Virus record (IMG/VR): IMGVR_UViG_2850808358_000005
Strand: one strand, 5' to 3'
Source of the DNA: a virus
Lineage: Duplodnaviria; Heunggongvirae; Uroviricota; Caudoviricetes
Length of the DNA: 64,000 nucleotides
Every line of letters begins with the position of its first letter. Position 1 is the stretch's first letter. Under the pieces are notes generated by a model that was not told the origin of the DNA, did not search any database, and saw only the letters and a list, made by a program, of their open reading frames with translations. The translations under genes and the position numbers were made by a program. Below are positions 15,713-19,173 of this stretch, one piece after another.

Positions 15713-15787
15713 TGGAGCGGGCAGCGGGAATCGAACCCGCATCATCAGCTTGGAAGGCTGAGGTAATAGCCATTATACGATGCCCGC
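15713..15787 (-). tRNA. tRNA-Gly (anticodon UCC)
   Basis: Hand-folded cloverleaf: acceptor GCGGGCA, anticodon loop CUUCCAA, T-arm GGTTCGATTCC, encoded CCA. Confidence 0.8.
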
Positions 15788-15790
15788 ATA

Positions 15791-15866
15791 TGGTGCCGAC
15801 TACCGGAATCGAACTGGTGACCTACTGATTACAAGTCAGTTGCTCTGCCTGCTGAGCTAAGTCGGC
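15791..15866 (-). tRNA. tRNA-Thr (anticodon UGU)
   Basis: Acceptor GCCGACT/AGTCGGC, D-stem GCTC/GAGC, anticodon loop CUUGUAA, CCA encoded. Confidence 0.8.
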
Positions 15867-15868
15867 GC

Positions 15869-15945
15869 TGGCCCACCACCGAGGACTCGAACCTCGCACC
15901 GTCAACTTAGAAGGTTGATGCTCTATCCGGATGAGCTAGTGGTGG
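15869..15945 (-). tRNA. tRNA-Arg (anticodon UCU, reads rare AGA)
   Basis: Anticodon arm TCAAC-CTTCTAA-GTTGA; T-arm GGTTCGAGTCC; CCA encoded; phage argN/argO-like. Confidence 0.8.
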
Positions 15946-15946
15946 T

Positions 15947-16023
15947 TGGTGGCCCTTGCTGGACTTGAACCAGCGACCTGGCGATTATGAGTCGCTCGCT
16001 CTGACCAACTGAGCTAAAGGGCC
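15947..16023 (-). tRNA. tRNA-Ile2-like (anticodon CAU; could be elongator Met)
   Basis: Closely resembles E. coli ileX (GGCCC.TTAGCTCAG...GCGACTCATAATCGC...GGTTCAAGTCCAGC); anticodon loop CUCAUAA. Confidence 0.7.
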
Positions 16024-16111
16024 GGAGGCAGAATAATAACCATATGTCATCACATCTGCAAACTCATCTGACCACCAGCACGTTTAACGTCCTGTGCCGT
16101 TTTTCAGGTAT

Positions 16112-16133
16112 AAAAAAACCCGCATAAAGCGGG
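16112..16133 (-). terminator. rho-independent terminator between Q and the tRNA/lysis genes (tR'-like)
   Basis: Minus strand GCCCGCTTTATGCGGG followed by TTTTTTT. Confidence 0.55.
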
Positions 16134-16212
16134 CTCTTTCAAATGTCCATGTCTGCTATTCGCCTCGCGGTACAGCTTTGCGAAGCGTACAAGAATTGAA
16201 GCAGTTTTTACG

Positions 16213-16767
16213 TCAAAAAGCAATAACTTTTTTCTCTATACCAAAAGCCATAACCATTGGTTTGTACAAAATAAATTCTGCCACCTTTAGCCAATGCTCA
16301 ATGCGTCTTTCACAGGTTCTTAAACTCCATTTCGGGTGTGCATCATTCAGCAGTTCAGCCATTTTGCGTTTGGTCATCCCCCGCCCCTCATACCGTTGCC
16401 GAAGGACGCTAATCAATCCTGGATGCTCTGCCAGCACCTCACTTATAACCCGATCAATACATAACGCCTCTGCATCAGTACAATGCGCCAGCCAGCTCTT
16501 TTGCTTACCGTTAATCATATCCCGCAAAAAAGCCTCAAGTTCAGACTTGTTCAGACCTGCTTTTTTCATCCTCCGGAGCGCCTCGTTAATTGCCGTTTTT
16601 GTCAGCTTTTTAGAGGTCAACATCAGGTTAAACATATTCCCCGTCTTACCGCCACCAATATACGACCAGCGCCCCCACATACGTAGTTTTCCCTGAATCC
16701 AGACACTTTCCAGCGTGGTGAGACGAAGGTGTTCTCCGCTTTTTCCTGTATTCGTTGGGTAAATCAT
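16213..16767 (-). CDS. late-gene antiterminator Q-like protein
   Basis: Position upstream of tR', tRNAs and lysis cassette; start at internal ATG forming an ATGA overlap with the YbcO-like stop (track ORF extends to 16887). Confidence 0.55.
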   Translation of the reverse strand: MIYPTNTGKSGEHLRLTTLESVWIQGKLRMWGRWSYIGGGKTGNMFNLMLTSKKLTKTAINEALRRMKKAGLNKSELEAFLRDMINGKQKSWLAHCTDAEALCIDRVISEVLAEHPGLISVLRQRYEGRGMTKRKMAELLNDAHPKWSLRTCERRIEHWLKVAEFILYKPMVMAFGIEKKVIAF

Positions 16768-17054
16768 AAATATCCCTCCTTTCTCCAGATTTCTTGTGTG
16801 CGAAAAACACCTTCTGCATGCATCAGGCGTAATTCTTCTTTGGTGTAATCGCTGGTTTTTACCCGCCCGTCGATTAAATCGTGGCACGAGCTACAGGCAA
16901 TCGCTGCCTGCATATCGTGTGGCTTTATCGCTGTTCCGCACGTTCCCGCCAGTCGGTAATGCGCCAGCACAGACGTTTCCGGATCGTGATTGCAGTAGCC
17001 AGGAATTCTGACGGTGCACATCTGCCCCCGCGCCGCTTTAAGTAAATCCACCAT
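16764..17054 (-). CDS. YbcO-like protein (DUF1364, putative nuclease)
   Basis: Resembles E. coli DLP12 YbcO (KAARG..C.VRIPG.CN..PETSVLAH.RL.G.CGT..KP); Cys-rich. Confidence 0.55.
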   Translation of the reverse strand: MVDLLKAARGQMCTVRIPGYCNHDPETSVLAHYRLAGTCGTAIKPHDMQAAIACSSCHDLIDGRVKTSDYTKEELRLMHAEGVFRTQEIWRKEGYL

Positions 17055-17653
17055 TACGCAAACTCCAGCAGCTGCGCGGCCACATTTTCGACTTGTTCCG
17101 GAGAGGAAAATTTACGGAACAGAATCCAGTTCCACAGCACATTCAGTACAGATTTATAAACCTGCTGAAACTCGGTTTCGTCCATATTCGCAAACGCGAT
17201 AGATTTCGCCCGACACCCACGGCTACCGTCCGGATAAAAATGCTCGGTGTAAAATCCGGCCTGAATGGCTACCCACTCGCGGAAAGCCTCAAACGACTTT
17301 AGCAATGCCGTATCACGGGTTCTGCGTGTCGCAACTGTATTCAGATATTGCTCTACGGCTTCGCTCAGAGCTGGCGTATGTTCCCGACCTACTGATTCGC
17401 GCAGGTACTCAACGAAGCCTGAAACCAGTTTTTGTTCGCTAGGCGTGATCGCCCCTCCGACCGGAGTCCAGTAATCGAACCCCAGTTGCAGGAGTTTGAA
17501 AAAACGCTTGTGGAATGCGTAGTTACGAACGCGCTTAAAATCAGCGTGTATCCACTCACCTGTTTTGATTTGATGCAGAAAATCGCAACTCTCCGGCGTC
17601 GCCGGGAGAAGTAAACCAGAAGAAGTTTGTTTGACTAACTGTAAATGCACCAC
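17054..17653 (-). CDS. DUF1367-family phage protein (nin region)
   Basis: 199-aa ORF, translationally coupled to the YbcO-like gene; family call from memory. Confidence 0.45.
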   Translation of the reverse strand: MVHLQLVKQTSSGLLLPATPESCDFLHQIKTGEWIHADFKRVRNYAFHKRFFKLLQLGFDYWTPVGGAITPSEQKLVSGFVEYLRESVGREHTPALSEAVEQYLNTVATRRTRDTALLKSFEAFREWVAIQAGFYTEHFYPDGSRGCRAKSIAFANMDETEFQQVYKSVLNVLWNWILFRKFSSPEQVENVAAQLLEFA

Positions 17654-17713
17654 TACTACCCTCGTAATGGTGCGACAGGTACCAGGTGTTCAGACTGGCG
17701 TTGCCAGTATAAT

Positions 17714-17908
17714 TTAGTCTTCTTTAATACAGAAGTGGCTTACAGAATCTGCGTGCGATTCTTTGCTGATTAGAATTGCATCAGGAGGTAATGGCGTTAC
17801 GATAAACTCCCCATTTTCGAGCGTTATCACTTCGTAGTGACCTGGTAAAGAAAGCACAACAATCAATTCTTTAACGTTCATAACAAAAAGCCTGTGAACT
17901 TTTAACAC
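17714..17908 (-). CDS. hypothetical small protein
   Basis: 64-aa ORF; no recognisable family. Confidence 0.25.
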   Translation of the reverse strand: MLKVHRLFVMNVKELIVVLSLPGHYEVITLENGEFIVTPLPPDAILISKESHADSVSHFCIKED

Positions 17909-18011
17909 TTCCCCTTAAGGGGTCCATCCCTCTTCTCCCTGCGCGCTACTTAAGTGTTTTTGATTCTATTCCTGCGCATTCTGAAAGTTCAAACGCGTTG
18001 AAAATCGCAAC

Positions 18012-18034
18012 AAAAAACCCGCCGAAGCGGGTTA
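18012..18034 (-). terminator. rho-independent terminator at the hok mRNA 3' end
   Basis: Minus strand CCCGCTTCGGCGGG followed by a T-run, about 70 nt after the hok stop. Confidence 0.5.
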
Positions 18035-18103
18035 AGTGCGGGTGCGTTGAGGATGCCTGACACATCAGAGGTGGCGAGGGATTTCTCCCTCGCCTGGTCA
18101 CTC

Positions 18104-18259
18104 TTACTTCCTGGATTCGTAGTCTACGAAGACAGCGACCTCCGTCTGGCCGGTTCGGATTCGTACCTCACAGAGGTCTTTCCTCGTTACCAGTGCCGTC
18201 ACTATGACGGTTAAACAGATGACGATCAGGGCGATTAACATCGCCTTTTGCTGCTTCAT
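18104..18259 (-). CDS. hok: Hok/Gef-family type I toxin
   Basis: MKQQKAMLIALIVICLTVIVTALVTRKDLCEVRIRTGQTEVAVF... is near-identical to E. coli HokD/RelF; the in-frame upstream extension in the ORF track is likely the mok-like leader. Confidence 0.8.
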   Translation of the reverse strand: MKQQKAMLIALIVICLTVIVTALVTRKDLCEVRIRTGQTEVAVFVDYESRK

Positions 18260-18486
18260 AGCCTGCTTCTCCTTGCCTTTCGGCATGTAAGAGGCTAACC
18301 TACATGTGCAAAGCATGAAATTGGCCTCAGATTAATGTTAAGCGTCTTGCCGGACGCGTAATGTTAACTGGGGCTTTTCTCTATCTGCCTTTTGGTGTTC
18401 ATGCCTGAAGCAGATAGCCTCAAGCACCCGCAGTCATTCTACTTACCTCGCCAATATGAAATCAATCAGAAAGGTGCCCCATAAAA

Positions 18487-19173
18487 TCACTCCTTCTCTT
18501 CTTTACCGTAGTGGAGTTGACCAATTTTGATAAGAGGGCGTCCCTGAGATTTGCGGTGTAGATTGGTATCGCGCAGAGAATACACACAGCCACAATATTC
18601 CTGCTGATAGAATTTTTCGCGCTTGCTGATTTCAATCATACGGGACGAGCCGCCCTGCTTGCGCCAGTTATAATCCCAGTACACCATGCCCGGATAATGC
18701 GCGACGGCTCGCCGCCCACAGTCGTTAACCTGCTGCATATTTTTCCAGCGTGAAATGCCCAGTGAACTGCTGATCACACTGAAACCATTTTCAGCGGCGT
18801 ACAGCGCTGTCCGCTCAAAACGCATGTCAAAACACATGGTGCAACGGATCCCTCGTTCGGGCTCCCATTCCATTCCTTTGGCTCGTTCAAACCAGTTGTC
18901 TGTGTCGTAATCAGCATCAATAAACGGCACGCCGTGTTGTTCAGCAAAGCGAATATTCTCATCCTTACGAATTAAATACTCTTTCTGAGGATGAATGTTC
19001 GGGTTGTAGAAAAAGATGGTGTAGTCGATTCCCGAGGCCTGAAGCGCCTCCATCACCTCACCGGAACATGGAGCACAGCAAGAGTGCAGTAGTAGTTTGT
19101 TTGCCCCGTTTGGGAGCTCCAATTTGGGCCGTTTGAAATCAGCAACTGTCATAAATATGTTTATTGGGGTCAT
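18487..19173 (-). CDS. epoxyqueuosine reductase QueH-like protein (DUF208)
   Basis: Cys motifs [11 protein letters not shown] and EYCGCVYS characteristic of DUF208/QueH; 228 aa. Confidence 0.6.

Follow-up and report, generated by a model that had tools for sequence, protein, structure and literature searches.

A phage-borne queH gene and a four-tRNA cluster in a lambdoid-type prophage of Escherichia coli and Shigella

Identity and position of the phage queH gene

The 64,000-nucleotide stretch analysed here (the window) belongs to the Caudoviricetes record IMGVR_UViG_2850808358_000005. The minus strand of one of its two prophages, prophage 1, carries a cluster of four transfer RNA (tRNA) genes at 15713-16023 and, about 2.5 kb away, an open reading frame (ORF) at 18487..19173 that encodes a homolog of the cobalamin-independent epoxyqueuosine reductase QueH. 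An earlier note on this DNA had described the cluster as lying between the antiterminator gene Q and the holin gene, had called the ORF DUF208/QueH-like, and had read the two as a possible functional pairing. A profile search and a tRNA scan bore out both gene assignments and the spacing; the pairing did not hold, as set out below.

The queH ORF encodes 228 amino acids from its first ATG (19173), or 221 from the start chosen by the Prokaryotic Genome Annotation Pipeline (PGAP) at M8 (19152). Its match to the Pfam family QueH (PF02677, DUF208) spans 174 of the 175 profile positions (1-174), with E=1.9e-65 and a score of 220.6 bits (cut-off 23.5), and a phmmer search of the PDB aligned residues 27-203 with Thermotoga maritima QueH (TmQueH; 7lc5, E=5e-22). 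The AlphaFold (AF2) model of the protein is of moderate quality only (predicted local distance difference test, pLDDT, 74; predicted template modelling score, pTM, 0.73); its top five Foldseek matches in the PDB were all TmQueH, with a target-normalised template modelling (TM) score of 0.76 and a probability of 1.0.

Conservation was assessed in an alignment of 80 diverse full-length representatives, taken from a library of 1.8 billion proteins. Every column conserved in at least 90% of sequences is kept in the phage protein (C32, C33, P35, C36, N57, N59, E65-Y66, R69, W94, E106, R110, C111, C114, R118, and K144), and the C-terminal C194 and C196 are likewise present. The motifs CCxPC, RCxxC, and CGC are all found, with residues that are 79-100% conserved among the 80 representatives (C194 being the lowest, at 53/67) and invariant in 26 close homologs. 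C36 (window positions ~19066-19068) is a cysteine in 67 of 71 diverse family members and an aspartate, Asp13, in T. maritima, so the phage protein represents the family norm and the crystallised TmQueH is the outlier; mechanistic inferences from TmQueH may not transfer directly to the CCxPC majority. The PDB also includes D13N and C9S mutants of TmQueH.

The ORF is thus an intact, full-length QueH, and Pfam and motif comparison show it to be of the ordinary cellular type with no additional domain. It shares the full length of the domain, the Cys motifs, and the predicted fold with cellular QueH (TmQueH, PDB 7lc5/7lc7, and the proteins of Erwinia, Providencia, Proteus, and Photorhabdus), and has 80-86% amino acid identity to the chromosomal QueH of Enterobacterales. 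It differs from these in being an early-region gene of a temperate phage, in a host that already has QueG. PHROGs places the family in phrog_3217, of 'unknown function', with a model that begins at M41 and so is without the CCxPC motif; many phage annotations therefore appear to start queH at an internal Met, dropping CCxPC.

From ORFs, Pfam, Rfam, PGAP, and PHROG assignments, the minus-strand order is cro/cII-like, O-like, DnaC-like, DUF977/Ren-like, a zinc-ribbon ORF, queH, sok/hok, DUF1367, YbcO/DUF1364, Q, the tRNAs, holin, lysozyme, and Rz. A complete prophage in NZ_CP065613, 99.7% identical, served as the annotated comparator through its PGAP product names. The earlier note had placed queH in the late region, in one operon with the tRNAs. 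Its actual place is upstream of Q, in the delayed-early (nin-like) region, with the replication genes on one side and hok/sok and the nin-like genes on the other. The Q-like late antiterminator gene itself (DUF1133; 16213..16767, minus strand, PGAP start) was assigned by PF06576 (E=3.8e-107) and PF06530 Phage_antitermQ (28.4 bits, cut-off 26), and divides the early region, with queH, from the tRNA and lysis region.

Directly upstream of queH, also on the minus strand, is a gene for a small zinc-ribbon-like hypothetical protein (19321..19734; a weak Zn_Ribbon_TF match below the cut-off; phrog_1621, unknown function), preceded by the DUF977/Ren-like gene (19735..20157; PF06163, E=1.1e-32; phrog_142, 'Ren-like exclusion protein') and, farther upstream, by the DnaC-like (20172-20918) and O-like (20925-21707) replication genes. 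On the downstream side, a hok/mok toxin ORF (18104-18316; PF01848, E=9.8e-23) and a sok antisense RNA region (18254-18429; Rfam sok, 117 bits) together occupy 18104..18429 of the same strand. Co-occurrence in viral contigs identifies DUF977 and hok/sok as the steady neighbours of queH. The GC content of queH is not distinct from that of neighbouring genes. A moron, or lysogenic-conversion gene with autonomous expression, would be flanked by a promoter and a terminator of its own; a GC hairpin without a T-run lies beside queH at ~19235-19250, and no convincing queH-specific terminator was found.

The tRNA cluster and its independence from queH

Reading downstream from the Q-like gene on the minus strand, the cluster comprises an ileX-like tRNA-Ile2 (CAU; 15947..16023), which reads AUA after lysidine modification, tRNA-Arg (UCU; 15869..15945), which reads AGA, tRNA-Thr (UGU; 15791..15866), which reads ACA/ACG, and tRNA-Gly (UCC; 15713..15787), which reads GGA/GGG. 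All four were found by ARAGORN and by the Rfam tRNA model at 56-70 bits (gathering score 29; tRNA-Ile2, 70.5 bits). The CAU tRNA is called tRNA-Ile by PGAP in the 100%-identical cluster of NZ_CP065613 and is 92% identical to the chromosomal tRNA-Ile of a K-12-lineage (O16:H48) strain, which makes it an ileX-type tRNA-Ile2 reading AUA. The Thr gene has 98.7% identity to the host tRNA-Thr/Tyr/Gly locus and the Gly gene is near-identical to the host chromosomal tRNA-Gly; at 98.7% identity to host genes, these two provide extra dosage rather than new specificity. The complete cluster is present in 603 of 5426 complete E. coli genomes.

The earlier note had suggested that several of these tRNAs read codons rare in enterobacteria, and the tRNAs do read host-rare codons. 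AUA, AGA, ACA, and GGA together account for 41 per 1000 codons in late phage genes and 54 in early ones, compared with 20 in a small host sample of 2592 codons from 8 genes (adjacent gal/mod/ybhA; Fisher p=4e-7 and 3e-11, respectively), so that these codons are two to three times commoner in phage genes than in the neighbouring host genes. The tRNA module, at the head of the late/lysis region, would thereby add decoding capacity for AUA, AGA, ACA, and GGA. A candidate sigma-70-like promoter (TTTGCA-18-TATTAT; 16033..16062, minus strand) ends 9 nucleotides before tRNA-Ile and may serve the tRNA cluster itself; it is a consensus match, from a promoter scan that gave no more hits for the region than for shuffled sequence. 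Just downstream of Q and before the tRNAs, a GC-rich hairpin with a T-run (16111..16135, minus strand) may be a tR'-type terminator; it was read from the sequence and is absent from the output of a consensus terminator scan.

Lambdoid and Stx phages are known to carry tRNA genes of the ileZ-argN-argO type downstream of Q, as in phage 933W. As in those phages, the cluster analysed here is flanked by Q and the lysis/late genes and follows the logic of providing tRNAs for AUA and AGA, both rare codons. The Ile-Arg-Arg set is also the commonest beside queH in viral contigs. The cluster differs in composition, being Ile2-Arg-Thr-Gly with near-copies of host Thr and Gly genes. The cluster is ordinary lambdoid biology.

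Queuosine is made solely on GUN-anticodon tRNAs, i.e. those for Asp, Asn, His, and Tyr (PMC9508795). As the anticodons of the cluster are CAU, UCU, UGU, and UCC, and none is GUN, no cluster tRNA can be a queuosine substrate, contrary to the earlier proposal that QueH may modify the phage tRNAs. The Q-like gene intervenes between queH and the tRNAs, which are in different transcription units. A second, identical four-tRNA cluster, overlooked in the earlier note, was found by ARAGORN and Rfam at 53512..53822 (minus strand) in a degraded second prophage (prophage 2) that has no queH. Conversely, the isolated phage HannyBb carries queH in the same slot and lacks tRNA genes over the 16.7 kb analysed. 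Among 45 queH-bearing IMG/VR contigs with at least 4.5 kb of downstream sequence, 9 had no tRNA, 17 had Ile-Arg(UCU)-Arg(UCG), 8 had Ile/Lys/Thr/Gly, and only 2 had the set of the window. Because either module occurs without the other and the combination is so rarely repeated, queH and the tRNA cluster are independent, and their pairing is a mosaic coincidence.

Distribution, origin, and proposed role of QueH

The earlier note had treated a phage-borne queH as unexpected. We found queH DNA in 995 of 5426 complete E. coli genomes (18%), full-length in 985 of the 995, and RefSeq always annotates the E. coli copies as 'epoxyqueuosine reductase QueH'. Since queG is present in all 5426 genomes, every queH-positive E. 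coli strain has both enzymes. The statement that enterobacteria use QueG and not QueH stands for E. coli, but not for the order: the nearest relatives of the phage QueH outside E. coli, at 78-86% identity, are proteins named QueH from Erwinia, Providencia, Proteus, Photorhabdus, Gibbsiella, Pantoea, Dickeya, Rahnella, Sodalis, and others, and Erwinia, Providencia, Proteus, Photorhabdus, Pantoea, and Dickeya are among those with a chromosomal queH. In Erwinia (86% amino acid identity), queH has purL on one side and, on the other, a sensor kinase-response regulator pair, after which come glnB, hmp, and glyA homologs; in Providencia (84%), it adjoins tmcA and purC homologs. Both contexts are core chromosomal and non-prophage. 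Synonymous sites (dS) of the phage gene are saturated against the Erwinia and Providencia genes, and queH contains no AUA or AGA codon. Together with the chromosomal contexts, this indicates an old capture of a cellular queH of the Enterobacterales type. Comparison with the HannyBb copy (96.5% amino acid identity) gave 23 synonymous and 8 non-synonymous differences and an omega of 0.08, and queH is thus maintained by purifying selection.

A wider occurrence of QueH in phages was considered and rejected, as the 25 tblastn matches in the phage collection leave HannyBb as the single bona fide phage. Among gut-virome contigs, the largest one checked, MT835504.1 ('UNVERIFIED: Bacteriophage sp.'; 27818-46402), is bacterial chromosome, with ABC transporters, argininosuccinate lyase (ArgH), aspartate-semialdehyde dehydrogenase (Asd), and topoisomerase I (TopA) around its queH. 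The QueH records of a 328-378 kb 'Acinetobacter phage', Staphylococcus, and Listeria look like host DNA. A full-text literature search found no paper on prophage queH in E. coli, although the primary QueH papers may mention such a gene; phage-borne QueH is thus a RefSeq-named member of a known family that is apparently unstudied.

To our knowledge, E. coli and Shigella have no de novo cobalamin synthesis. E. coli QueG (yjeS) has the same predicted reaction as the phage QueH, from epoxyqueuosine (oQ) to queuosine at position 34 of tRNA, in the same cells. The two folds are unrelated, and QueG depends on cobalamin and an iron-sulfur cluster, whereas QueH is cobalamin-independent and uses an iron-sulfur cluster and iron only (PMC11906303, PMC5615194, PMC13443448). 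Staphylococcus aureus keeps both enzymes, with expression differing between them (PMC13443448), and in Shewanella phage infection induces queG, with queuosine rising and oQ falling (bioRxiv 10.64898/2026.03.05.709803). These two cases make it plausible that this step is relevant to the interplay of phage and host.

The most likely role of the phage protein would be a cobalamin-independent route from oQ to queuosine on host tRNAs. The gene, captured long ago from a bacterial chromosome, now occupies a variable slot that has the replication genes on one side and hok/sok on the other, and the iron-sulfur enzyme that it encodes would reduce oQ at position 34 of host tRNA-Asp, -Asn, -His, and -Tyr. 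This would need none of the cobalamin on which host QueG relies and would free the last step of queuosine synthesis from the vitamin B12 supply. The early rightward promoter would drive expression during prophage induction, perhaps with some low-level expression in the lysogen, and either phage translation in induced cells or the lysogen itself would benefit. Independence from B12 may be the selective advantage. That the protein acts on oQ-tRNA without cobalamin in E. coli is predicted from its sequence.

In summary, we favour a reading in which this part of a Rac/lambdoid-type prophage of E. coli/Shigella combines two accessory modules that are independent of each other, one supplying tRNAs for codons rare in the host and the other supplying QueH for the host tRNAs, and we hold this explanation with a confidence of roughly 0.6. 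Several points weigh against it. The promoter scan found no convincing sigma-70-like promoter upstream of queH on its strand, so queH is probably transcribed mainly with the early operon on induction, and its expression in the lysogen is uncertain. We know of essentially no characterisation of a physiological difference between oQ-tRNA and queuosine-tRNA in E. coli, which makes the benefit conjectural. The NAU fraction of NAU/NAC codons is 0.54-0.57 in phage genes and 0.59 in host genes, no difference, and codon usage thus gives no sign that the phage needs queuosine. An NCBIfam search with QueH gave nothing at E<=0.01, even though PGAP uses the name 'epoxyqueuosine reductase QueH'. Finally, the host codon sample is small.

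Of the alternatives, the best survivor is that queH is a captured cellular gene hitch-hiking with hok/sok and the replication module, of no benefit to phage or host. Its redundancy with the universal queG, the lack of a clear promoter of its own, and the tight linkage to hok/sok and DUF977, which could carry it along, all fit such a passenger. We nevertheless consider this unlikely, given the low omega and intact catalytic motifs, the full-length copies in nearly all carrier genomes, and the saturated dS against cellular relatives, which implies long retention in phages.

A role in conflict, in which QueH alters the modification of host GUN tRNAs to counter a tRNA-targeting defence or toxin or to exclude other phages, is very unlikely. 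The slot does hold exclusion or anti-repressor genes in related phages (the Ren-like neighbour here, and an ORF6N gene in prophage 2), and the Shewanella response shows that queuosine levels react to infection; the protein, however, is a plain cellular-type QueH.

The proposal that QueH serves a 7-deazaguanine modification of phage DNA against restriction, as in dPreQ0/dG+ phages, is barely credible. Phages do use queuosine-pathway enzymes for this purpose, and their clusters of DpdA with FolE/QueD/QueE/QueC (Hutinet et al. 2019, PMC6884629) are, like queH, phage-borne queuosine-pathway genes. Such clusters draw on the early, preQ0 steps of the pathway and on a DNA transglycosylase, whereas this prophage has solely the tRNA-specific last-step enzyme, whose substrate in the known pathway is oQ already built on tRNA by QueA. 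The DpdA transglycosylase and the preQ0 synthesis genes would be required, and among the PGAP product names of the complete prophage in NZ_CP065613 there is no DpdA/TGT-like protein, FolE, QueD, QueE, or QueC, with only part of the ORFs scanned by profile hidden Markov models. The suggestion in the earlier note that QueH feeds a deazaguanine pathway accordingly finds no partner genes in that annotation. The 2019 survey, moreover, did not find QueA, QueG, or QueH in any virus that it analysed (PMC6884629).

That QueH and the tRNA cluster form one unit tuning translation, with QueH modifying the phage-encoded tRNAs, is effectively refuted by the anticodons, even though a single prophage has them on one strand, no more than 2.5 kb apart, and some other prophages, e.g. 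that of APEC O1, carry both.

About one-fifth of sequenced E. coli strains have a prophage-borne second, cofactor-independent enzyme for the last queuosine step. Provided that the enzyme is active, the queuosine/oQ state of tRNAs in carrier strains would not depend on B12 as it does in K-12, with a bearing on studies of queuosine-dependent translation, virulence, and biofilm formation and of B12 competition in the gut. An active enzyme would, in addition, give the first example of the tRNA-specific part of the pathway in a phage: the 2019 survey of viruses had found none of its enzymes QueA, QueG, and QueH, and PHROGs lists the family without a function. A stronger claim can be framed, namely that temperate phages of E. 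coli/Shigella carry the only phage-borne tRNA-branch queuosine enzyme so far seen, and that it forces oQ to queuosine on host Asp/Asn/His/Tyr tRNAs under cobalamin limitation, so that phage yield, the fitness of the lysogen, or its resistance to attack on tRNAs would change measurably. We regard this claim as doubtful; if true, it would open the long-obscure functional difference between oQ and queuosine to direct tests in a natural setting.

Lysis cassette, second prophage, and other elements of the window

The lysis cassette downstream of the tRNAs (minus strand) begins with a class II holin gene (14819..15034; from ORFs and the PGAP names in the NZ_CP065613 prophage), followed by lysozyme (14322-14819) and Rz-like (13855-14337) genes. 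A strong hairpin with a T-run lies directly upstream of the holin gene (15069..15100, minus strand); it was read from the sequence and missed by the consensus terminator scan. Between the tRNA cluster and the holin gene, at the position of stx in Stx phages, is a 113-amino-acid ORF (15191-15532, minus strand) with no Pfam or PHROG match; a terminator-like site inside it (15435-15454) means that it may not be a gene. On the opposite (plus) strand, at 13254-13766, a moron-like gene for a DedA/VTT-domain membrane protein separates the Rz-like gene from the terminase region.

The stretch 51877-57212 of prophage 2 is a copy of the lysis-tRNA-Q-nin-hok/sok module of prophage 1 at 94-98% identity, with queH absent. 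The slot held by queH in prophage 1 is filled in prophage 2 by an ORF6N gene, accompanied by a C4-type antisense RNA. There are two ORF6N-domain genes (57299-57979 and 54030-54587), each preceded by C4 antisense RNA, isrK, and c4-a1b1 elements (RNAs 54639-54837 and 57899-58100), an arrangement of the kind seen in P1/P7-type antirepressor control. Prophage 2, which continues to ~62000, borders on a truncated TrkH-like gene (50129-51292) and includes a gene for an insertion sequence (IS) transposase (60033-60851). The long direct repeats, ~38 kb apart, could drive recombination between both prophages.

Each prophage has one RalA antitoxin small RNA (sRNA) of the Rac-type ralR/ralA system (31700-31879 and 61654-61832). 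CssrB was found at 33741-33923 and sRNA-Xcc1 at 25760-25849. At the right end, the SraC/RyeA and SdsR/RyeB sRNA pair (63394-63538) adjoins a phage integrase gene (62415-63266); prophage 2 is probably attached to the chromosome in this region. The window also carries an ipaH3 locus and many IS elements, and its closest matches are Shigella/enteroinvasive E. coli (EIEC)-like strains.

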